Assembly: GCA_022340215.1 (NCBI GenBank)
Contig: JAJDOJ010000164.1
Coordinates: 290 to 64,289 of the forward strand
DNA from: Gammaproteobacteria bacterium
GTDB taxonomy: Bacteria; Pseudomonadota; Gammaproteobacteria; JAJDOJ01
DNA length: 64,000 nucleotides
Reading direction: 5' to 3'
Shown: piece by piece, positions 3,188-51,604 of the stretch
Layout of the letters: each line of letters starts with the position of its first letter
Position numbering within the stretch: position 1 is the first letter of the stretch
Position numbers and translations under genes: made by a program
The notes under the pieces: model-generated
Seen by the model: the letters and a program-made list of their open reading frames with translations, nothing else
Told to the model about the DNA's origin: nothing
Database searches by the model: none

Positions 3188-3718
3188 TTAACCCTCAAAG
3201 TCCGGCCAAGATGCATCTTTATCGGAGATAACGGAGACCGTGACCGGCCACTCGATTCCCAGGGCCGGGTCGTTGTAGCGCAAACCCTGTTCGGCACCAG
3301 GCGTATAGAACTCCGTCACCATATAATAGGCTTCGGTGTCGTCCTCCAAGGTCACGAATCCGTGAGCAAAGCCTTCAGGCACGAACAACATCCGATGGTT
3401 ATCCGCGGTAAGTTCTACACCTATCCAATCCTTAAATGTCGGGGAGTCTTCACGAAGATCGACGATGACGTCATAAAGGGACCCGCGCGTGCAACGTACC
3501 AGTTTCGACTCCTCGTGGGGACTGATCTGGTAATGCATGCCCCGCATTGTGCCCTTTTTTGTGCTCAGGGAAACGTTGGCCTGCGCGAGATCCGCCGACA
3601 AACCATGTTCCTGCATTTCCCGCTTGCACCAGGCTCTGGCGAAAAAACCTCTTTCATCCCCCAGTTCCTGGATATCGATGATAAAGGCACCCTTGAATTT
3701 GGTCTCGTCAAACTTCAT
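3188..3718 (-). CDS. RmlC-like cupin sugar-nucleotide 3,5-epimerase (dTDP-4-dehydrorhamnose 3,5-epimerase family)
   Basis: 176 aa. Start KFDETKFKGAFIIDIQELGDERGFF and motif MHYQ...VPEGFAHGF are typical of RmlC-family epimerases. Confidence 0.75.
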   Translation of the reverse strand: MKFDETKFKGAFIIDIQELGDERGFFARAWCKREMQEHGLSADLAQANVSLSTKKGTMRGMHYQISPHEESKLVRCTRGSLYDVIVDLREDSPTFKDWIGVELTADNHRMLFVPEGFAHGFVTLEDDTEAYYMVTEFYTPGAEQGLRYNDPALGIEWPVTVSVISDKDASWPDFEG

Positions 3719-3756
3719 GGCTTGTCGCTTTGTTCTATGTGTTTGGACCCGGCGCC

Positions 3757-4806
3757 TTAGGCGATCCAGCGCAATTCTTTGCCAAGAAGTTTTCTTTCTT
3801 GCAGACCGTTCAGAACCTTTAACCGCATGTATTGGGAGTTCCGGAAGTCCTGGTTGTCAAACCCCATACGCTCCAGTCCCTCTCTCAATTCCCGAATCGA
3901 TTGATCTAGCGGTACCTGAGGGAGGTGACCCGGGGCAAGCGACTTGTACAGACTGAAATCAACTCGATAGGAGCGCTTGTCCGGTTGGGCTTCCGTGTTG
4001 ATCTCCAGCTCCACATCCGGCATCTGCTCCTTTACGGCCTCCGCAAGATCTCGAACCTGGTAGTTCCACTCCGTCCTTCCAACGTTGACTGCCAGGAAAG
4101 CGCCGCCGTTCGATGCTTCACGGCTCACGGCCCAATTCATCGCGCGGCTCATGTCCTTGATGTCGATTAGCGGGCGCCACGGGGTGCCGTCACTGAGTAT
4201 CTTGATCTTCCTCGAAGCGACCGCGGCCGCTACAAAATCATTTAGAACCAGGTCCAGACGCAGGCGTTCGCTCATACCACAAGCCGTAGGAAACCGCAGA
4301 CTGGTGACAACGAAACTGTCTTCAGCCAGACCTTGAATGGATTTTTCCGTGTTTATCTTTGATCTCGCATAGGCGGTTAGTGGGTTTAACTCAGAATTTT
4401 CATCTCGCGCCTCACCCTCGGCGTAACCGTATACACTGCAGCTGGAAGCGAACACGTAGGACTTCACGCCCGCCTCTTTCGCCATCTCGGCAATCCGTAG
4501 GCTGGAACGGTAATTGACTTCGGCGGTTACGTTCTCGAACGCATTACCCATAGGATCGTTGGAGATAGCGGCCAGATGGACAACGCTGTCCACCCCTCGC
4601 AGGAACTGCAGTTCAATATCTCGAACGTCCCTGATGTACTGAACATCGATTCGGGTTTCCGGAAGCACTTCGGCCCCCGTAAGACAGTGACCAAAAAAAC
4701 CCGTGTCTACCCCCACTATCTTCACCCCCGGATAACCCGCCTTTAGCGTACGTACCAGCGTTGGACCGATGTACCCCATGTTTCCAGTAATTAAGATGTT
4801 CTGCAT
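3757..4806 (-). CDS. NAD-dependent nucleoside-diphosphate-sugar epimerase/dehydratase (extended SDR)
   Basis: N-terminal glycine-rich motif ITGNMGYIG, catalytic YARSK (YxxxK), 349 aa. Confidence 0.75.
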   Translation of the reverse strand: MQNILITGNMGYIGPTLVRTLKAGYPGVKIVGVDTGFFGHCLTGAEVLPETRIDVQYIRDVRDIELQFLRGVDSVVHLAAISNDPMGNAFENVTAEVNYRSSLRIAEMAKEAGVKSYVFASSCSVYGYAEGEARDENSELNPLTAYARSKINTEKSIQGLAEDSFVVTSLRFPTACGMSERLRLDLVLNDFVAAAVASRKIKILSDGTPWRPLIDIKDMSRAMNWAVSREASNGGAFLAVNVGRTEWNYQVRDLAEAVKEQMPDVELEINTEAQPDKRSYRVDFSLYKSLAPGHLPQVPLDQSIRELREGLERMGFDNQDFRNSQYMRLKVLNGLQERKLLGKELRWIA

Positions 4807-4935
4807 TTTTACTCGAGTAGTTCCCTAGAAATAATTGAAATATTCATAGTCACACTCAAGCAGAGCGTGCCCGTGCCGTGTTTCATTTTCCCTTGAACCG
4901 CTGGTATGGGGCAATTCAAGGAGATCTCAATACTC

Positions 4936-6156
4936 TCAGGTCAAGGTGGATAGATTACGGTCGATATAGTCGACAACGTAAGCGGAGAATGGGATTGAAC
5001 ACGTCCATCCCGGCGACACAGCATTCAACACATGGGTTGACTCACTATTTCCCTCCAACACGAAGTCCATTTCCAGTTTGCGTTTCTTCGTGTTGACCAA
5101 TTGTGCGCGAATGCCAGGCTTACCCCAATCCCTGAAATGCGACTCGGTAACTCCCGTTGCCAATTTCGTTGCCAGTGAAATCAGATGGTTGCGTGAATAC
5201 TTCCGGATCTCCGTCATCGCCAACCTGGAAAATTTGAATTCGGACGAGGTAAACAGCGATGCAGAACGCAAACCAATATCGACAACCTCACCTAAACTGA
5301 ACCCGTTGAACCCATTGTAATTCTCGCGCCAGAAAGCAGGGATAGCAGTAGGCCCGATTTTGGTTATTCCATCAACGGTAATAGTGAAATGGACGCCGAG
5401 GAACGGATATTCGAGATCCGGAACTGGGTAAATATGCGTCTTGTATGCCCCTTTCTGTTCATTAGATTTCAGGTAGATTCCTTTGAACGGCAAGATCGCA
5501 TAGTCCTCGGAGAAACCAAAATCGCGCGCCACCTTGTCGGCGTACAATCCAGCGGCATTCACTAGATGACCCACCACGTAATCGCCAGATTTGGTAAGTA
5601 TCTTCATTCCGTCTCGCCTGACATATCCAGCGCCGTATCGGAAGTCGATCCCTTCCCGTCTGGCATCCTGCTCCATGTGCTGGATCACCGTGAGTGGATC
5701 GGCGGATGATGTTGTCGGCGAATAAATAGCTCTGCGGTAGGTCTTGATTCGCGGTTCTATCCGCCGTGCCTCCTCCGCGCTCAGTTCCTCGAGCGCCACA
5801 CCATTGGTCGCTCCACGCCTCAATAGTTCATCCAGCAACCTGTCTTCCGACTCATTAGACGCGACGACAAGCTTGCCGCATTTGTTGAGAAATATCCCTT
5901 TATCGTCACAATACTCGGTGAGGGCCTGATTTCCGTCCCGAGTAAATCTGGCCTTCAGACTATCGGCCGTGTAGTAAAAGCCAGCATGCAGCACGCCGCT
6001 ATTCCGACCGCTGGCATGTTCGCCGCAGACGGTTTCCTTTTCCAGGAGGACAACACTGGAACCCGGATTCCGACGTTTTATCTCACGCGCTATGTTGATT
6101 CCGATGATGCCTGCGCCGATGACGAGGAAATCGGCTCGTTTTGCCTTGGTCACCAT
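4936..6156 (-). CDS. FAD-dependent oxidoreductase (DAO superfamily, L-2-hydroxyglutarate-oxidase-like)
   Basis: FAD fingerprint DFLVIGAGIIGINIA at the N-terminus. 406 aa. It sits inside the sugar operon. Confidence 0.65.
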   Translation of the reverse strand: MVTKAKRADFLVIGAGIIGINIAREIKRRNPGSSVVLLEKETVCGEHASGRNSGVLHAGFYYTADSLKARFTRDGNQALTEYCDDKGIFLNKCGKLVVASNESEDRLLDELLRRGATNGVALEELSAEEARRIEPRIKTYRRAIYSPTTSSADPLTVIQHMEQDARREGIDFRYGAGYVRRDGMKILTKSGDYVVGHLVNAAGLYADKVARDFGFSEDYAILPFKGIYLKSNEQKGAYKTHIYPVPDLEYPFLGVHFTITVDGITKIGPTAIPAFWRENYNGFNGFSLGEVVDIGLRSASLFTSSEFKFSRLAMTEIRKYSRNHLISLATKLATGVTESHFRDWGKPGIRAQLVNTKKRKLEMDFVLEGNSESTHVLNAVSPGWTCSIPFSAYVVDYIDRNLSTLT

Positions 6157-6929
6157 ATCTTCCAGGGAGCTTCACCACTATCCCAAATGCTTTCCAGGTG
6201 GTTCTTGTCTCTCAGCGTGTCCATGGGGTGCCAGAATCCATGATGTCGATATGCGCTGAGCTGATTGTCCGATACCAACGCGTCCAGTGGTTCCCTCTCC
6301 CAGACCGTGGAATCACCTTCGATGTAATCCGTTACCTTCGGCTCCAGGACGAAAAAACCTCCATTGATCCAAGCATTTTCTTCCTTCGGCTTCTCACGAA
6401 AATGCTTTATCACGTTCTGCCCTTCTGCGAGAGTAAAAGCTCCAAACCGACCGGTGGGTTGAACTGCGGTAAGGGTCGCTAGTCTACCCTGCTGCCTATG
6501 AAAGCTTACGGCCTCACTAATATTGATGTTTCCGACACCATCTCCATAGGTCAAACAGAATGTCTCGTCGCCAATGTAACCCCTCACCCTTTTTAAACGG
6601 CCGCCAGTCATGGTTGCCACCCCCGTGTCCACCAAAGTGACCTGCCACTTTTCAACCCCACTCTTGTGGATTTGTGTATCCTTACCCTCCCCGTCAAACG
6701 TGAAAGTCACGTCCGACCTGTGAAGCCAATAATTGGCGAAATACTCTTTGATAACATATCCCATGAATCCACAACAAATAACGAATTCACTAATACCATG
6801 GCAATAGTAAATTTTCATAATATGCCAGAGAATCGGCATCCCGCCCACTTCGACCATTGGTTTAGGCCGAATCGAAGTTTCTTCCGACAGCCGAGTGCCC
6901 AACCCACCGGCAAGTATCACTGCCTTCAT
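6150..6929 (-). CDS. rfbF: Glucose-1-phosphate cytidylyltransferase (CDP-glucose pyrophosphorylase). First gene of the operon.
   Basis: MKAVILAGGLGTRLSEETSIRPKPMVEVGGMPILWHIMKIY is the RfbF/DdhA signature. 259 aa. Confidence 0.85.
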   Translation of the reverse strand: MKAVILAGGLGTRLSEETSIRPKPMVEVGGMPILWHIMKIYYCHGISEFVICCGFMGYVIKEYFANYWLHRSDVTFTFDGEGKDTQIHKSGVEKWQVTLVDTGVATMTGGRLKRVRGYIGDETFCLTYGDGVGNINISEAVSFHRQQGRLATLTAVQPTGRFGAFTLAEGQNVIKHFREKPKEENAWINGGFFVLEPKVTDYIEGDSTVWEREPLDALVSDNQLSAYRHHGFWHPMDTLRDKNHLESIWDSGEAPWKIW

Positions 6930-19921: not shown

Positions 19922-20995
19922 TTAGGGGGTCTGTTCCAGTATCACACCGCTGCCCGGGGCCTGGTACAGGTCAATGCGATCAAGGTGCGGGATCACGTTG
20001 GCCAGCCGAGTGAAGATCCAGCGGGCGATACCCGCCGGGTCCGTCGAGCCAATGTCGTCGATCTCGTCCAGCCGCCGGTGGTCAAGGAGATCATACACGG
20101 GACCGAACAGCGCCTTGACGTCGCCATAGTCAACGGTCCAGCCCATGAGCGGATCCAGTTGGGTGGTCAGATAGAGCCGTACCCGATAGCTGTGCCCATG
20201 AAGCCGGCGGCGGGGATCCCGCGAAGGCGCGTTGCCAAGACGCAGTGCGCTCTCGAACCGGCGTTCCTTCCAGATCCGATGGTTCGTCCCGTCGAAGTGG
20301 CAACCCGCCGTGGTCGTTTCGTACACGGTGACACGGGACAGCGATGGCACGGGAGGTTTGATCCGTCCCCAGATCCAGGTTGCGATCAACTCACTGGTCG
20401 GGTTCTCGAGACCGGGAAGGTCGTTGAGACAGCCATGGTCGAGTTCACGGAAGAGTGCACCCCATTCCCGGTCCAGCGCGGCCTCCTCGAGCCGGCACTC
20501 CACCTCGTCCAGGGAATGGCGGGTCCGCAGGTCGACATCGAAACCGTGCCCGTGCATGCGCCCGCAGGGGTGTCCGGGCGGCACGTTCGGCAGGCGGTGG
20601 GCGGCCTCGAAACGGACACGTCGCCACGCATGAACCGCGCTTCCGGGTTTGTAATCGATGCCGGAAGTCGGAGCGCCTCGGACGCTGACCCGGACGATCC
20701 CCGGCACGTCGATCCGCCTGGAGATCCAGCGCGCCAGATTCTCGTCGGTGGGCGTATCGAGGCGTTCGTTGAGCAGGGAATAGTCCAGCGGTTCCACGCT
20801 GCGCACCAGGGACCTCTCAAGCGCGGCGGACTCGTCGCCCGGAAAGCGGCCCCAGCCCGACGGAAGGTTCGCCCGAACCCGCGACAGAAAACTGTGGCCG
20901 TGCAGCCCCCTCTCGGAGCGATCGAACGAAGTACCGTCCAGACGGCGTGCAGCCTCGAACGGTGCATGTGCGGTATACAGCAGGAATTCTTTCAC
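19922..20995 (-). CDS. 6-pyruvoyl-tetrahydropterin synthase / QueD-family protein with three tandem PTPS-like modules
   Basis: Three repeats carry the Zn/catalytic signature: FDRSE-RGLHGHSF, FEAAHRL...CGRMHGHGF, FESALRL...RRRLHGHSY. 357 aa, about three times a PTPS domain. Confidence 0.65.
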   Translation of the reverse strand: MKEFLLYTAHAPFEAARRLDGTSFDRSERGLHGHSFLSRVRANLPSGWGRFPGDESAALERSLVRSVEPLDYSLLNERLDTPTDENLARWISRRIDVPGIVRVSVRGAPTSGIDYKPGSAVHAWRRVRFEAAHRLPNVPPGHPCGRMHGHGFDVDLRTRHSLDEVECRLEEAALDREWGALFRELDHGCLNDLPGLENPTSELIATWIWGRIKPPVPSLSRVTVYETTTAGCHFDGTNHRIWKERRFESALRLGNAPSRDPRRRLHGHSYRVRLYLTTQLDPLMGWTVDYGDVKALFGPVYDLLDHRRLDEIDDIGSTDPAGIARWIFTRLANVIPHLDRIDLYQAPGSGVILEQTP

Positions 20996-30932: not shown

Positions 30933-33899
30933 TCAGGCGATCTGCTTGAGTAGCGCTTCGGCCTCGTGGCGCTGATGATCGTCACCTTCACGGACAACCT
31001 CTTCGAGCGTACTCTTGGCCCCCTCGCCATCGCCCATGTCGATAAATGCCCGTGCAAGATCGAGCTTTGTAGCGACCGAGTCACCTTCGGGACCGGCACC
31101 CATGATCTCCGTCTCGAAATCCGCCGGATCGAACTGGGTAGTCTCCTGCGCCGGCCCCGTAGAAGAAAGGTTTTCTTCGAAATGCGCCGCCAGATCCTCG
31201 AGACCGCCCAGACCCTCGACGACTTCGGTCTCGACCTCATCCGGAGTGGTTTGCCCTTCGGGGGTCTCGCCGCCAAGATCGACGACGTTTTCGACCTCTG
31301 CAGTTTCGCCGCCCGGCAATCCGAGATCCTCTTCGAGATACTCCTCGAATTCCGCGGTTTCACCGGCGAAACTACCCGAAACACCGAGGTCCGCCGCGTC
31401 GCCGCCGTCGGTCGTCTCACCGAACTCGCCAGACACATTCAGTTCGGAGATCTCGAAGTCCAGGGTGGCCGCCTCGTCCAGTGAGGCATCCGCAGATACA
31501 CCCTTCGTTTCCGCGTCACCTAATCCGAAGTCCAGGCCGTCGAGATCGAAGTCGAGCGGCTTGTCATCGTCTTCTATCGACTCGACCTCTAGCGTCCCAT
31601 CGACGGGCATCTCCAGCATGTCCGTTTCGCCCTGTTCAGCGAACTCGGGCAATTGTTTGGAATCAACCTCCTCCGGCTGACCGGATTCGAACTCGTGCAC
31701 CCCGGTCTGGCCAGGCTCATCGGCAGACATGTCGAGATCCGTCGATTCAGGCTTGTCCTTGATAAAATCCGCGGCCTTCAGACCGCCCGTATCGACCCCT
31801 GCGAACAAGGTATGTTCCGGGCTGATCTCCTGGCCCATGGCCACGACACGATTCCAGAATTCTCCCTGGTTCTTGCCGGCTGCCGCCATTTCCTCGGCCG
31901 TCTCGACAAAGGCCTCCCGGTTGTCGTCCCGATAATAGGCCTCGGCAAGTTTTGCACGATAGATCTCAGCATCCGGGTCCTTCTCGATCGCATCCTTCAG
32001 CAGATCCTCAGCCTGCTGGAACAATCCGTAGGCCACATACACATCCGCCTCAGACACGGCTTCGTCTACCGCCTGCTCGTTGGTCTCCGTCCCCGGCTGT
32101 ATCGCCCCGGTATCGAGCAGACCCGCTCCGATCTGCCCTGTGACCATGACCTGGGCGGTTCTCTCGAAGGTGTCCGTTTCGGAGGCTTCCTGCGCGGCGC
32201 CCTCATCGGACGGGGTCTTACCACCCATGGTGGCCGCCTGTGCGGCCGCTCCATGCGCGGCTGCGCCAGCACCGGCAACCGCCGCGGCGGGCAACGTGTG
32301 CGCGCCGGTGGCAAACAGCTCGGACATGTCGTCGGACTCATCCACCTCTCGCCGGCGGCGACCGACCATCCAGAGTCCGATTAGCGCCAGAAGGACGGCA
32401 CCACCCCCCAGGCCGTAGAGGATTCTTTCATCCGCGAAGATCCGATCGAACAGTCCCGCGGGTGCCACCGGGGTCACTTCCTCCGTGGATACCTCGGGTA
32501 CGGAAACAGTGACGTCCGTCTCGGCAACCTCTACCCCTGCCTCGGGATCCAGGACCTGCGTCACCACTTCATCCATTACCGGTTCATCCATTACCGGATC
32601 TTCAGTCTCCATTTCGGCGGCAATCAGATCCTCATCGACCAGTGGCAGTTCGGTCTCCTCTCCGGTATCCGTATCCAGACCGGCCAGCACGTCGTCCTGA
32701 GGAACCGCTGCAATATCCTCTCCACTTTCGATCACTACACCTTCGGGGGTAACATCTTCCTGCACCAGGCGATCCTGCAGTACGGACAACTCATCGCTCT
32801 GCAGTGTGATGACGCGCTCTTGCTGGGAGACCATGGCTTCAAGCTCCGTCACGCGCGCCTTCAGCGCCTCGTTCTCGACCGCCCGTGATTTCGCGATCTC
32901 CCGGGCCAGTGCCGCGTCATTGCCGGCGCCGGCACCACTTGCCTCCTCGGTCTCGGATCCCGCCAGGATCTCAAGATTTCCGTCGGCGCGGGTTTCTGCA
33001 TCGCCGGTCGTCTTGACGTCGACCCTGGCCTGTTCGCCGCGCGCCTCGGGCAGTGCTTCCTGGGACTGTACCTGTCTGCCGGCGGCCCTCGCGTGGTACT
33101 CCCGCCAGAGTGCGTTCTGACTGGCCACTTCGGCCACGGCTTCCGGCTGGCTGACGGCGCCGGCTTCCGCGGCATCGGGAATCCGGAGCACCGCACCGGC
33201 TTTCAGATTGTGAATGCTGTTATTGGTAAACGCCTGGGGATTGGCGCGAAGCATCGCGATCATCATCTGCTGGGAACTGACGCGATTCGAGGGATTGACC
33301 TGCCTGACGATGCCGCTGAGCGTGTCACCACGTCGAACCCGATAGGTATCCTGCGAAGGGACACCAGCCGGGGTGGCCACCGAAGGTCGAGGGGGTGCAG
33401 GACTTGCCGAAGCGGCCCGGGGTGCGGGAGCGGGTTCGCGTACCGGCGCACTTTGACGCACCACCGGTGCCACGGGTGCAGCGGCTGCCCGCCGCTCCAT
33501 CAATACCGGCGGATCGAGGAGAATGGTGTACTCTCGAATCATGCGCCCGTTCGGCCACACGACCTCCACGAGGAAATTCAGAAACGGTTCGCGAATCGGT
33601 TCTCGTGAAATGACGTCGATGATCGCGCGGCCGTTGAGCAACGCGGGCTTGAACTGCAATTTCTGCAGCGCCGGTGGCCGCGCTATCCCGACACGCTCAA
33701 ACGCCTCGGGAGGGGCCAGTCCGACTGTGATATCTTCCAGTTCATCGGGGTGCACGGAAAGCATTGTGATTTCAGCCCGCAAGGGCTGATTCAGAGCACT
33801 GTCGACCTCGATCCCCCCGAGTCCCAGCGAGGTCGCCGCGCCTGGAAGGAACACAATGAGGGGGAGCATCCCCCAAACCAGCTTTTTCACGATTGTAGT
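30933..33899 (-). CDS. fimV: FimV-like peptidoglycan-binding pilus/polar-assembly protein
   Basis: LysM motif YRVRRGDTLSGIV. Highly acidic repeat region. Conserved FimV C-terminus LDLARAFIDMGDGEGAKSTLEEV. Probable GTG start at 33899 (GAGGA RBS, signal peptide MKKLVWGMLPLIVFLPGAATSLG). The ORF extends to 33956. Confidence 0.8.
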   Translation of the reverse strand, partial: TTIVKKLVWGMLPLIVFLPGAATSLGLGGIEVDSALNQPLRAEITMLSVHPDELEDITVGLAPPEAFERVGIARPPALQKLQFKPALLNGRAIIDVISREPIREPFLNFLVEVVWPNGRMIREYTILLDPPVLMERRAAAAPVAPVVRQSAPVREPAPAPRAASASPAPPRPSVATPAGVPSQDTYRVRRGDTLSGIVRQVNPSNRVSSQQMMIAMLRANPQAFTNNSIHNLKAGAVLRIPDAAEAGAVSQPEAVAEVASQNALWREYHARAAGRQVQSQEALPEARGEQARVDVKTTGDAETRADGNLEILAGSETEEASGAGAGNDAALAREIAKSRAVENEALKARVTELEAMVSQQERVITLQSDELSVLQDRLVQEDVTPEGVVIESGEDIAAVPQDDVLAGLDTDTGEETELPLVDEDLIAAEMETEDPVMDEPVMDEVVTQVLDPEAGVEVAETDVTVSVPEVSTEEVTPVAPAGLFDRIFADERILYGLGGGAVLLALIGLWMVGRRRREVDESDDMSELFATGAHTLPAAAVAGAGAAAHGAAAQAATMGGKTPSDEGAAQEASETDTFERTAQVMVTGQIGAGLLDTGAIQPGTETNEQAVDEAVSEADVYVAYGLFQQAEDLLKDAIEKDPDAEIYRAKLAEAYYRDDNREAFVETAEEMAAAGKNQGEFWNRVVAMGQEISPEHTLFAGVDTGGLKAADFIKDKPESTDLDMSADEPGQTGVHEFESGQPEEVDSKQLPEFAEQGETDMLEMPVDGTLEVESIEDDDKPLDFDLDGLDFGLGDAETKGVSADASLDEAATLDFEISELNVSGEFGETTDGGDAADLGVSGSFAGETAEFEEYLEEDLGLPGGETAEVENVVDLGGETPEGQTTPDEVETEVVEGLGGLEDLAAHFEENLSSTGPAQETTQFDPADFETEIMGAGPEGDSVATKLDLARAFIDMGDGEGAKSTLEEVVREGDDHQRHEAEALLKQIA

Positions 33900-34030
33900 C
33901 CTCGTTCGCTCGAAAAATTGCTCAGAAACCGACTGCGATAGATTGTTCCGCTGCAATCCGTGCGACGAAAACCGCGCCCGCGAAACCGCTGGGCCGAAAA
34001 TCCGTAGAAGCTTTTGGACGGTAACTGCTA

Positions 34031-47533: not shown

Positions 47534-49414
47534 ATGGCAGGCCCACCGCTACCCACTGGTATCCGGCAGAACAACGTTATGCAACTGAATACCCCGTTTC
47601 AAACCGCCCCCGGCAGCGATTCCCCGTTTGCCGAGCCGCGCAGGGTCAAGCGCTGGCTCAGAGAGCTGCCGCCCACCAACATAGGCGAATCCACGAGGCT
47701 TTTCTACGAGGGATTGAGGGACTCGAACCGCCTCGTGATCGCGCCGAAGAAACGCCTCGAGATCATGGAGTTGATGCGCTCGACCGCGAAACCGATCACC
47801 CGAAACCTGCAGAAGCATCTGCTTGCGCGCAGCTACCCACTCCCCACCAGGACCCGAAAGATCCTGCAGCTCAATCTTTCGATCCAGGAGGAGATGGCTA
47901 ATGGCTACAAGAGCGCAATCAACGATGCCGCCAACGGTAGGGGAAAACTCGATCCGCGCTCCCAGGTGCTGGCCGTTCAGCGTGCGATGCGCTACCTGCA
48001 GGCGCAGTTTCTCTCCTCGATGGAAAGCTATGTGGGCTACAACGAGGGCAACTGGCGGGACCTGTATGCGCTGTTCGCGTTCGCCGAACAGCGCGACCTG
48101 CTCGACAGGGCAGTCAAGGACGAAGAATACGAAACCCTGACTCGCGCCACCATCGAGGACGTGTTCAGACAAACGGTGCTTCTGGAACTCTCCAAACCAC
48201 AAAGCCTGCGCCAAGGCGAGGCGGCGAAACTTGCGACCTACTTCGAGCACACCGCTCGCAGCTGCGTGGTGCGACGGGGCCTGGCCCCCGATGCCGACGA
48301 CAACGCCTGCGTGATGGACCTCGACAGCGACGACCCCCCCGTGTGCGCGATCGCCTCGCAGATCGAAAGTTCACCGTACCTGCGCTTTCTGGATATCAGC
48401 GCGCTGATCGCGTCAATTCAGTCACAAATCCAGGGTGCCGATTCCAACGACGCCATGGGTGCACCACAGGTGACCCTGAGTCTCGATCTCTACCGCCGGC
48501 TCCACCAGCACCTCACAACCAGCATCTCGCGCCGATTCTCCCGCGGTCCGGGGAGATTCGAGACCGAGTCCCTGATCGTGATCGGTCTGCCAAACATTCA
48601 TCTGGCGCATCGTATCGATGCAGGGGCATTCGAGGAAACCGAGATCCCATACGAGCCCCAGAGCGTCGACCCCGTATCCGATGTCCTGTCGCCACCCGAC
48701 ACACTGTCGATCGACCTCAGCACCGAAGAACTGACCAAGCCCGGCCGATTCGAATTCCGGGCAAAGACCGAAACCGGCATGAGCAGCGGCAATGCCTGGG
48801 AGATCGTCGCCCGGGGGAACGTGATCGGTGAAAACAGTTTCAAGGCGACGCCCGGGGGAGAGGAAGTGCCTCTGCCGGATCGTAAGACGGATGAAATCTT
48901 TCACCGTTGGGGTGTCATCAACGTCAGCGCCGGCGGTTACCGGTTGAGGACGCAGGACACAGAGGCGAGCAACGCGCACGTCGGGGAGATCCTCGCAATG
49001 CGGTTTCCCCACGGCTCGAAGACACGCTGTCACGTCGGCGTTATCCGCTGGATGCAGGCGTACGGCTCCGGTGCCCTGGACATCGGGGTGCAGCTCATGG
49101 GTCCCAGGGTGCTACCGATCACGGTGGATTTCATCGACGTTTCGAGACGCACCTCGTCGGAACCCCGCGAAGGACTTGTCCTTCCCAGGGTTCAGGCTCT
49201 CAATCAGCCCTCCACCTTGGTGCTGCCGTACGGGGAATTCTCCGTCGGCGACAGGGTTATCGCGGCGATCGAGAACCGGGAGAATCGGTTGGAACTCACC
49301 GAACTCGTCGGACAGACCGGGTCATTCAGTCAGTTTCGATATTCCACCCTTTCCGAAACGGACGAATCGACGGACGACCAGGACAAGTTCGCGTCGCTCT
49401 GGTCGAAGCTCTGA
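47534..49414 (+). CDS. Large (626-aa) protein with an unassigned N-terminal region of about 450 aa and a C-terminal PilZ (c-di-GMP binding) domain
   Basis: PilZ signatures near the C-terminus: DRKTDEIFHRW (RxxxR-like) followed by VINVSAGGYRL ((D/N)xSxxG). No match recognized for the N-terminal region. Confidence 0.6.
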   Translation: MAGPPLPTGIRQNNVMQLNTPFQTAPGSDSPFAEPRRVKRWLRELPPTNIGESTRLFYEGLRDSNRLVIAPKKRLEIMELMRSTAKPITRNLQKHLLARSYPLPTRTRKILQLNLSIQEEMANGYKSAINDAANGRGKLDPRSQVLAVQRAMRYLQAQFLSSMESYVGYNEGNWRDLYALFAFAEQRDLLDRAVKDEEYETLTRATIEDVFRQTVLLELSKPQSLRQGEAAKLATYFEHTARSCVVRRGLAPDADDNACVMDLDSDDPPVCAIASQIESSPYLRFLDISALIASIQSQIQGADSNDAMGAPQVTLSLDLYRRLHQHLTTSISRRFSRGPGRFETESLIVIGLPNIHLAHRIDAGAFEETEIPYEPQSVDPVSDVLSPPDTLSIDLSTEELTKPGRFEFRAKTETGMSSGNAWEIVARGNVIGENSFKATPGGEEVPLPDRKTDEIFHRWGVINVSAGGYRLRTQDTEASNAHVGEILAMRFPHGSKTRCHVGVIRWMQAYGSGALDIGVQLMGPRVLPITVDFIDVSRRTSSEPREGLVLPRVQALNQPSTLVLPYGEFSVGDRVIAAIENRENRLELTELVGQTGSFSQFRYSTLSETDESTDDQDKFASLWSKL

Positions 49415-49435
49415 ATCCATGATCCTCCTGGTCCC

Positions 49436-51604
49436 GTGCACGCAGCATCAGGCCGCGAAGGCGTACTGACCGTGACGCCTCTCAAGACACGTTTTTCCCA
49501 ATACGACAGAGAGCTGAACGCCTTGCGCAACGAGAATAAACTGCAGGTGATCATCGTCGAGAGCGATCTGAACGACGCGGACAGGGTCATCAGTATGCTG
49601 AAGTCGGCCGGTTACGCCGTCAGGGCGTCCCGGGCGGAGTCGTTGGAGGAACTGAACGAGCAGCTGCGCAAGCGCTCCCCGCAACTCGTACTCTGCACAC
49701 TCGGACTCGAAGAGCTGAGTCTCGAAAACACCATTGCCGCCATCAGGGAAGCCGGCAAGAACATCCCCGTCATCGCGGTCGCTCCCGAAGGTGAGGCCAA
49801 CGACGTGGAGTGCATGCAAGCCGGCGCGCAGGACCTGGTCGACAATGACAACCGCGATCAGTTCGTCCTGGTCGTGGACCGCACCGTCAGGTGCCACAAT
49901 CTGTGGCGCCAGGTCAAGAAGCTCGAAGCCGCGATTGGCGAGTGCGAGCGCCGCAGCCGCGTGCTCCTCGACACCTCCCGGGACTCGATCAGCTACGTTC
50001 ACGAGGGCATGCATGTCTACGCGAACGAGTCCTATCTCGACTTCTTCGGATTCGAGAGCTTCGACGACATCGAGGGTATGCCGCTCGTCGACATGATCGC
50101 ACCGGAGGAACAGGCGCGTTTCAAGACAGCGTTGCGCGAATTCAGCGACAAGAGTCAGAAACCCATCGAAATCGACATCCGTTTGCAGAATGCCGCCGGG
50201 GAGCTTATCGACGGCATCATGGAATTCAGCCCGGCGACTGTCGATGGGGAACCGTGCACCCAGATTCTCATCCGTAACCAGGCCAACGCCCGCGAACTCC
50301 AGGACCAGCTCGCGCAAATGAGTCAGCGCGACGTCGCGACCGGGCTCTACAATCGCAAGCACTTCATGACGATGGTCGACGAGGCCATCCAGAACGCGAC
50401 GACGGGCCAGGGAAACAGTGCCCTGATCCAGATCGAGATCTCTAACATCCAGGACATCCGCAACCGGCTCGGGGTGGCTGCGACCGACATCGTCATCTCC
50501 GACATCGCCCGGGTCCTCGAGGACACGTGCGTGGAAGACGATGTTCCGGCCCGGTTCGCCGAAGAGACATTTTCGGTGCTGACGACCCACGATTGGGAAC
50601 AGACCAATCTACTGGATTGTATGACGCGTCTGGCGTCCGCGGTCGAGGGACACATCTCTGACGTCGAGGGAAAATCGGTGACCGCCGAGATCTCCCAGGG
50701 CGCCGTACAGATCGACGAGAACTCACCGGATTCCGATGAGCTGATCCAGCGCGCGGAAAAGATCCTCTCCGAATCCCGCAAACGCGAGGCCAACCGCTAC
50801 GACATCTACGTCCCCCATGAGGGGGAGATGTCCCAGAAACAGATCGACAAACTGTGGCACGAACGTCTGTTGAACGCCATGGTCGAAAGGCGGTTGTCGC
50901 TGGAATTCCAGCCCATCGTCAGTCTGCACGGCGACGAAGGGGAACGTTACGAGGTCTACGTTCGCCTGCGCGACGAGAACGGGGAGATTGTCCCGCCGAT
51001 GGATTTTCTCCCCAGTGCGGAACGCAGTGGGATCGCCTCCGACATCGACCGGTGGCTGATCCGGGCGGCGCTGGAAAAACTCTCGGCGATTCGCAAGGAA
51101 GGCCGGGACACAACGATGTTCATCAAGCTCAGCTCGGGTTCACTGCAGGACGAGGAACTTGTGATCTGGCTGGCGGAGATCGTCAGGGACACCCGGGTCC
51201 CTCCTGCCAGCGTCGTCTTCCAGATTTCCGAAAACGTCGTCACCGCGTATCTCAAGCAGGCGAAGGCGCTCGCCCGGCAGCTGCAGGAACTACACTGCAA
51301 ACTGACCATCGAGGAATTCGGGACCGGACTGAAGCCCTTTCAGTTGCTGAAACTGGTACCGGCCGACTACCTGAAGATCAGCGCCACGCTGATGGAAAAC
51401 ATCGCTCAGGACAACGAAAACCAGGAGGCCGTACACACCCTGAGCGACACGGCGCACTCCATGAACAAGGAAACCATCGCCCCGTACGTCGAGGACGCCG
51501 GGACGCTGTCCGTCCTATGGGGACTCGGGGTGAACTATATCCAGGGGAATTTCCTGCAGGAACCCGCGGAGTCGATGGACTACGACTTCTCAACAATGGG
51601 ATAG
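49436..51604 (+). CDS. FimX-like c-di-GMP signalling protein with degenerate REC, PAS, GGDEF and EAL domains
   Basis: REC lacks the phospho-acceptor Asp (LVLCTLGLEE). PAS region. The GGDEF site is replaced by RFAEETF. The EAL domain carries QPIV...EVYVRL and EEFGTGL, with substitutions at catalytic positions (N to K in IKLSS, DDFG to EEFG). Confidence 0.7.
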   Translation: MHAASGREGVLTVTPLKTRFSQYDRELNALRNENKLQVIIVESDLNDADRVISMLKSAGYAVRASRAESLEELNEQLRKRSPQLVLCTLGLEELSLENTIAAIREAGKNIPVIAVAPEGEANDVECMQAGAQDLVDNDNRDQFVLVVDRTVRCHNLWRQVKKLEAAIGECERRSRVLLDTSRDSISYVHEGMHVYANESYLDFFGFESFDDIEGMPLVDMIAPEEQARFKTALREFSDKSQKPIEIDIRLQNAAGELIDGIMEFSPATVDGEPCTQILIRNQANARELQDQLAQMSQRDVATGLYNRKHFMTMVDEAIQNATTGQGNSALIQIEISNIQDIRNRLGVAATDIVISDIARVLEDTCVEDDVPARFAEETFSVLTTHDWEQTNLLDCMTRLASAVEGHISDVEGKSVTAEISQGAVQIDENSPDSDELIQRAEKILSESRKREANRYDIYVPHEGEMSQKQIDKLWHERLLNAMVERRLSLEFQPIVSLHGDEGERYEVYVRLRDENGEIVPPMDFLPSAERSGIASDIDRWLIRAALEKLSAIRKEGRDTTMFIKLSSGSLQDEELVIWLAEIVRDTRVPPASVVFQISENVVTAYLKQAKALARQLQELHCKLTIEEFGTGLKPFQLLKLVPADYLKISATLMENIAQDNENQEAVHTLSDTAHSMNKETIAPYVEDAGTLSVLWGLGVNYIQGNFLQEPAESMDYDFSTMG

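Follow-up and report, generated by a model that had tools for sequence, protein, structure and literature searches.

A probable fimW-fimX operon encoding two predicted c-di-GMP receptors on a gammaproteobacterial contig

Two adjacent plus-strand genes on contig JAJDOJ010000164.1 of a gammaproteobacterium of lineage JAJDOJ01, analysed here within a stretch of 64,000 nucleotides (the window), very probably form an orthologous fimW-fimX operon, i.e., they would encode two catalytically inactive receptors of cyclic dimeric GMP (c-di-GMP) that promote the polar assembly of type IV pili (T4P). In Pseudomonas aeruginosa, FimW and FimX are known from the literature as the products of the adjacent genes PA4958 and PA4959, respectively. 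Since the upstream protein of the window can be assigned to the FimW family and the downstream protein to the FimX orthologues, the window pair corresponds to this known FimW-FimX pair. An original prediction, made from the DNA letters, had proposed an adjacent, probably co-transcribed pair of presumably non-catalytic c-di-GMP receptors tied to T4P control, and this functional reading was right. The two reading frames 21 nucleotides apart and all peptide strings that it quoted (RFAEETF, EVYVRL, IKLSS, EEFGTG, RKTDEIFHRW, and INVSAGG) are indeed present in the translations. Its further suggestion of a distinct signalling or pilus-control module fails, because the upstream gene belongs to a curated FimW family and the pair has been described as PA4958/PA4959. 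The properties computed here are the FimW membership, the FimX orthology, the degeneracy of the REC, GGDEF and EAL domains, the PilZ fold, the ligand motifs, and the adjacency of the genes.

The exact 611-residue form of the upstream protein is recorded in three metagenomes of the Joint Genome Institute, with matches to both PF27104 (FimW_N) and PF27125 (FimW_C) at E<=1e-5. In these records, the 611-residue gene is followed, after 21 nucleotides, by the same 722-residue REC/PAS/GGDEF/EAL gene as in the window. A homology search yielded homologs of about 585-613 residues with identities ranging from 98% to 25%, all of which carry both PF27125 and PF27104 in the precomputed Pfam annotation, and gene tables name them FimW_C and FimW_N. 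At the distant end, a member from Marinobacter zhejiangensis is 25% identical over the full length (E=4e-56), and a member from a metagenome-assembled genome (MAG) of the Azotimanducaceae is 23% identical. A profile of the family retrieved 5,604 representatives of 50%-identity clusters at E<=1e-3, 2,613 of which scored at E<=1e-30. Earlier Pfam and NCBIfam models gave only sub-threshold matches, i.e., to PilZ (residues 459-522) and to TIGR02266, and a sequence search of the 626-residue version against the PDB gave no match. By these family models, the upstream protein is a member of the FimW family, and the N-terminal ~450 residues, which had been said to match nothing, match FimW_N. The FimW-FimX pair of P. 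aeruginosa was reportedly described in 2019, and the FimW paper is said to be that of Laventie et al. in Cell Host Microbe of that year.

The 722-residue downstream protein shows the FimX-like REC-PAS-GGDEF-EAL architecture that had been expected (Pfam REC, residues 38-136; PAS, 189-271; GGDEF, 297-454; and EAL, 476-710, E=3e-58; coordinates in Table 1). Its top match in the PDB is FimX of P. aeruginosa (4J40), with E=2.9e-85 over the GGDEF-EAL part, and with the EAL domain taken by itself, the matches to 3HV9 and 3HV8 have E values of about 2e-62. FimX scores well above RbdA, Xanthomonas FimX, LapD, and active phosphodiesterases, and the protein is, as judged by these alignments, an orthologue of FimX. 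The predicted lack of a phospho-acceptor in the REC domain was borne out. When compared with CheY and CheB of Escherichia coli MG1655, D12 and D13 are replaced by Glu and Ser, D57 by Thr, T87 by Ala, and K109 by Asn. The Thr at the position of CheY D57 sits within LVLCTLG (49685-49705), and in each of the 12 orthologues compared the Asp is likewise missing, with Thr, Lys, Ser, or Arg in its place. In the GGDEF domain, the segment 'parfaeetfsvl' aligns opposite 'larfgdsifaal' of P. aeruginosa FimX.

The degeneracy of the EAL domain, which also had been anticipated, was assessed with PdeL of E. coli, a proven phosphodiesterase, as the reference (Table 2). Five of the ten catalytic or metal-binding positions are replaced (Asn by Lys, Glu by Gln, Asp-Asp by Glu-Glu, Asp by Ser, and Glu by Pro), whilst the Glu and the Arg of EVYVR and the QG motif are kept. 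FimX of P. aeruginosa binds c-di-GMP by means of its EAL domain with sub-micromolar affinity, has no cyclase and only weak phosphodiesterase activity, and promotes pilus assembly through an interaction with PilB. Presumably, the 722-residue protein is likewise a catalytically inactive c-di-GMP receptor. Not all orthologues are degenerate to the same extent: in some of them, the metal-binding Asn, the Glu that opens ExxE, or the first Asp of DD has been retained, and the one in reference locus L014 still has the Glu of EGVE. A motif of the MDYDFS type ends all FimX orthologues, that of P. aeruginosa included (51575-51592 in the window; loci L001-L021).

The C-terminal part of FimW was modelled with AlphaFold2 as part of the whole protein (mean predicted local distance difference test score, pLDDT, of 74; predicted template modelling score of 0.74). 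The model contains a PilZ β-barrel, and the best fold matches of the C-terminal half are two-domain PilZ proteins, i.e., MrkH, MotI, VCA0042, and YcgR. The unlabelled scores of the fold matches were 10.2 for VCA0042/PlzD, 9.8 and 9.1 for BcsA, 9.0 each for MotI, PlzA, and the PilZ domain of YcgR, 8.9 for PP4397, 8.7 for PA0012, 7.9 for MrkH, and 7.7 for PA4608. The first ligand motif, RRFSR, lies in a low-confidence loop (residues 332-340) before a strand (344-350), as in canonical PilZ domains, and the second, NVSAGG, is located on the barrel. When 276 sequences of the family are aligned, R333, R337, and G468 show no variation, an Asn or Asp occupies position 463 in all sequences but one (275/276), and S465 is conserved in 97%. 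The string RKTDEIFHRW, put forward in the original prediction as a PilZ motif, has an R-x7-R spacing and falls in mostly gapped, unconserved columns of this alignment, where only W459 is moderately conserved; the true RxxxR motif is RRFSR. Thus, as far as the model can tell, the C-terminus of FimW is a PilZ domain by fold and motifs and not by sequence profile.

In canonical PilZ domains, the two ligand motifs are about 20-30 residues apart. In the FimW of the window, RxxxR and [D/N]xSxxG are about 125 residues apart, and the spacing between RxxxR and the barrel ranges from 57 to 154 residues (median 103) across the 276 sequences. FimW is, therefore, an atypical split PilZ protein, the motifs of which are parted by a mostly disordered insertion (pLDDT <50 for residues 373-451). 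Owing to this separation of the RxxxR motif, the match to the generic PilZ model does not begin before profile position 25. The insertion could be a c-di-GMP-gated element that becomes ordered upon ligand binding. It contains the unconserved RKTDEIFHR and also the segment NAWEIVARGNV (48791-48823, residues 420-430) with a W[DE]hh motif about 35 residues before the barrel. This W motif is present in 64 of the 276 sequences, as compared with 9.8+/-2.8 in shuffles, and is conserved only in the clade of the window protein, where it may represent a lineage-specific docking motif. The idea that the insertion holds a docking motif for the whole family was rejected, as W[DE]hh is enriched but confined to this one clade. 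The all-helical N-terminal domain yielded only uninformative fold matches (designed helical repeats, 14-3-3, and TPR-like proteins), and a functional assignment from its fold was rejected since these matches are of a generic helical-repeat kind.

The conservation of the pair was examined in 20 species-representative reference loci, which were retrieved in a scan with a single peptide pattern and which are MAGs, all from uncultured Gammaproteobacteria, including Ectothiorhodospiraceae, Chromatiales, Thiotrichales, Azotimanducaceae, and others. In 15 of them, a fimX orthologue follows fimW, and this also holds at protein identities as low as 23-36%. The usual order in these loci is epmA-efp / epmB-fimW-fimX / htpX-parC, and in the window, psd, epmA, efp, and epmB lie upstream of the pair and htpX, parC, and parE downstream. 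In the Azotimanducaceae MAG and in M. zhejiangensis, the pair is followed by a serB-like gene and then parC. Elsewhere, FimW-like genes are found without an adjacent fimX, either between hslU and xerC-DUF484-dapF-lysA (L007, 7917-9845; L008, 8007-9842) or as tandem distant paralogues (L017, 6774-10493; L019, 7953-11795). The tandem in L017 is followed by a gene for a retropepsin-like aspartyl protease. Judging from these loci, the FimW family is broader than its fimX-linked orthologues.

The two genes are probably co-transcribed. A terminator scan of the 21-nucleotide gap between the open reading frames (47534-49414 and 49436-51604) found no terminator-like site, and the promoter and terminator scans were uninformative, as their counts did not exceed those in shuffles. 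The size of 626 residues originally given for the upstream protein is correct when counted from the first ATG, but the likely start is M16 (47579), which gives 611 residues and is the start used by the homologs and the public gene call. For fimX, a GTG at 49472 with GAAGG 9 nucleotides upstream is another possible start, in which case the gap is 57 rather than 21 nucleotides. The start codons of fimW (47534 or 47579) and fimX (49436 or 49472) are thus uncertain.

How the pair may function can be considered by analogy with P. aeruginosa, from which c-di-GMP binding by both proteins, polar recruitment, and stimulated PilB-driven extension are inferred. There, FimW forms dimers when it binds c-di-GMP, is brought to the poles, and stimulates the assembly of T4P after surface contact. 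In the organism studied here, a rise in c-di-GMP, e.g., upon surface contact, would lead to its binding to the split PilZ domain of FimW by the RRFSR loop and the NVSAGG motif of the barrel, after which FimW would dimerize, gather at the poles, and stimulate pilus assembly. FimX would bind c-di-GMP via its degenerate EAL domain (EVY and the kept Arg and Gln), localize to the leading pole, and activate the extension ATPase PilB, and its REC domain may serve as a phosphorylation-independent module for localization or interaction. The probable co-transcription and the kept adjacency suggest that a single pathway comprises both receptors, which may respond to different concentrations of c-di-GMP.

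Several observations weigh against this reading. The tie to PA4958 is drawn from the names of the Pfam families, from the literature, and from the syntenic position beside a verified FimX orthologue, rather than from a pairwise alignment. The phenotypes of fimW mutants conflict, as twitching was like that of the wild type in one study, whilst no visible pili were found in another, and according to a 2024 review there is no evidence of a functional interaction of FimW with FimX or PilB. The Pfam PilZ model (PF07238) scores 15.4 bits on FimW against a cutoff of 22.5, so that the C-terminal PilZ domain of the original prediction holds by fold and motifs but falls below the profile threshold. None of 15 family members passes this threshold, and only four of them reach E<=0.1 (best value 0.014). 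The EAL domain differs from that of P. aeruginosa FimX in having Glu-Glu rather than Ser-Gln at DD, and KIS rather than KID. Finally, pilB, pilZ, and other core pilus genes are absent from the 64-kb window, and the involvement of T4P in this organism is therefore one that we infer.

The alternative that survives best is that FimW docks on FimX, PilB, or FimV via its helical N-terminal domain or its disordered insertion and that the pair is one physically coupled unit. We regard this as possible, though on balance doubtful. The adjacency in 15 of the 20 genomes despite the low sequence identity, the short gap without a terminator, the polar localization of both proteins in P. aeruginosa, and the clade-specific W[DE]hh motif in the insertion all speak for it. 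They have to be set against the verdict of the 2024 review, the FimW-family genes without an adjacent fimX in L007, L008, L017, and L019, the restriction of the W motif to 64 of 276 sequences, and the fact that the conserved order extends to unrelated housekeeping genes around the pair (epmB, htpX, and parC), which shows that vertical inheritance is part of the explanation. A direct coupling of the receptors, be it physical or hierarchical, is rather unlikely to underlie the adjacency of fimW and fimX across several gammaproteobacterial orders; one form that it could take is a docking of FimW on FimX or PilB at the pole.

Far less probable than this coupling is that the 722-residue protein has enzymatic activity, whether as a c-di-GMP phosphodiesterase or as a bifunctional enzyme, which would make the pair one of an enzyme and an effector. 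It is true that the Glu of EAL, the Arg of EVYVR, the Lys of LKIS, the second Glu of ExxE, and the Gln of QG are kept, that the change of DD to EE is conservative, and that weak phosphodiesterase activity has been reported for P. aeruginosa FimX. However, the metal-binding Asn, the first Glu of ExxE, the Asp of KxD, and the Glu of EGVE are lost to Lys, Gln, Ser, and Pro, respectively, in a pattern close to that of P. aeruginosa FimX, which acts as a receptor, and with AEETF at the GGDEF position there is no cyclase site. It is just as improbable that the upstream protein is a paralogue within the FimW family with a role other than in pili, as might be argued from the size of the family (5,604 cluster representatives), the members at hslU/xerC in L007 and L008, the tandem paralogues in L017 and L019, and the lack of adjacent core pilus genes in the window, since the window copy occupies the fimX-linked syntenic position common to Marinobacter, other Pseudomonadales, and PA4958/PA4959.

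The preferred reading, i.e., an orthologous fimW-fimX operon, makes the pair a known system, which has Pfam models of its own and thousands of members; it is real but ordinary. Its relevance lies in the fact that well beyond Pseudomonas, in uncultured Gammaproteobacteria of the sulfur-cycle type, both the pair and the genes around it have been retained, which supports a shared function. In addition, the invariant RxxxR and [D/N]xSxxG motifs around an insertion of 57-154 residues define an atypical split PilZ domain, which explains why generic PilZ models miss it and which offers R333, R337, N463, S465, and G468 as residues for mutagenesis.

Table 1. Positions of the fimW-fimX pair, its domains and motifs, and fimV in the window
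Feature	Position	Strand	Remarks
Upstream open reading frame	47534-49414	+	626 residues counted from the first ATG
fimW orthologue	47579..49414	+	611 residues from M16; 626 if ATG 47534 is used
FimW N-terminal all-helical domain	47591..48433	+	residues about 20-300; modelled confidently
RxxxR motif RRFSR	48530..48544	+	residues 333-337, split PilZ domain; translation verified
Insertion between PilZ strands 1 and 2	48587..48898	+	residues 352-455; variable, mostly disordered
PilZ β-barrel	48899..49132	+	residues 456-533
[D/N]xSxxG motif NVSAGG	48920-48937	+	residues 463-468, on the barrel
Second C-terminal β-domain of FimW	49166..49348	+	strands 545-605, pLDDT 74-89; conserved L550 and P551
fimX orthologue	49436..51604	+	722 residues; alternative start GTG 49472
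Pseudo-receiver (REC) domain	49547..49843	+	phospho-acceptor absent
PAS domain	50000..50248	+	Pfam PAS_3, PAS_9, PAS_4; residues 189-271
Degenerate GGDEF domain	50324..50797	+	Pfam GGDEF E=4.3e-21; site AEETF at 50558-50572
Degenerate EAL domain	50861..51565	+	predicted c-di-GMP binding site
EAL motif EVY	starts at 50951
EAL motif IKLSS	starts at 51122
EAL motif FQISE	starts at 51218
EAL motif IEEFGTG	starts at 51308
EAL motif LKISA	starts at 51371
EAL motif APYVED	starts at 51479
fimV	30933..33956	-	Pfam FimV_N E=3.2e-39 and C-terminal TPR; unlinked context gene

Table 2. Residues at the catalytic and metal-binding positions of PdeL in the two FimX proteins
PdeL	Window	P. aeruginosa FimX
E141	E	E
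N200	K	H
E232	Q	Q
E235	E	E
D262 D263	E E	S Q
K283	K	K
D285	S	D
E319	P	P
Q339	Q	Q

FimV is a polar hub in T4P biology that binds peptidoglycan. The fimV gene that had been noticed near the pair is present 13.6 kb upstream of it, within an asd-leuB-leuC housekeeping neighbourhood. Elsewhere in the window, the region 3188-6929 has a lower content of guanine plus cytosine (0.51-0.56) than the remainder (about 0.61-0.64) and contains genes for a dTDP-4-dehydrorhamnose 3,5-epimerase, an NAD-dependent epimerase/dehydratase, an FAD oxidoreductase, and a nucleotidyl transferase. Such genes for sugar-nucleotide enzymes are what one typically sees in a cluster for surface polysaccharides, and a horizontal origin of the region is possible. 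On the minus strand, an open reading frame of 357 residues (19922-20995) has three separate matches to the model of 6-pyruvoyl-tetrahydropterin synthase (PTPS/QueD), pointing to a duplicated or fused PTPS. An overlapping plus-strand open reading frame of 417 residues has no Pfam match and is probably spurious.

In comparison with known c-di-GMP receptors, the PilZ part of FimW shares the RxxxR and DxSxxG motifs with its best fold matches, i.e., YcgR, MotI/DgrA, PlzD (VCA0042), and MrkH, but differs from them in the distance of about 125 residues between these motifs, in the insertion, and in the preceding helical domain of ~300 residues. The FimX-PilZ-PilB system of Xanthomonas (4F48, 4FOU, and 7LKQ) similarly comprises a degenerate GGDEF-EAL receptor, which controls PilB-driven extension, and the EAL domain of Xanthomonas FimX is related to that of the window protein (E about 1e-35). 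The window protein is, however, nearer to Pseudomonas FimX, with 290 bits as compared with 200 for 7LKQ and 131 for the EAL domain alone (4FOJ). The partner of Xanthomonas FimX is a small, single-domain PilZ protein to which c-di-GMP does not bind. FimW is not a substitute for this small protein but a further effector, separate from it, and the contrast drawn between the two in the original prediction was, therefore, misplaced.

FimX of P. aeruginosa (4J40, 3HV8, 3HV9, and 4AFY) has the same REC-PAS-GGDEF-EAL architecture as the window protein, without the phospho-acceptor Asp and with a degenerate GGDEF domain. In both, the EAL domain is replaced at the Asn, the first Glu of ExxE, DD, and the Glu of EGVE, which has become Pro. 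The window protein differs from it in having AEETF instead of GDSIF, EVY instead of EVL, EE instead of SQ, and KIS instead of KID, and the Asn of PdeL is Lys in the window protein and His in P. aeruginosa FimX. With respect to FimW, the window locus departs from the PA4958 type in being flanked by htpX rather than serB, and the window protein is distant from the members in Pseudomonadales (23-25% identity). In common with PA4958, the window protein comprises FimW_N and FimW_C over its full length of about 600 residues, ends in a C-terminal c-di-GMP module of the PilZ type with conserved RxxxR and [D/N]xSxxG motifs, and is encoded directly 5' of fimX.

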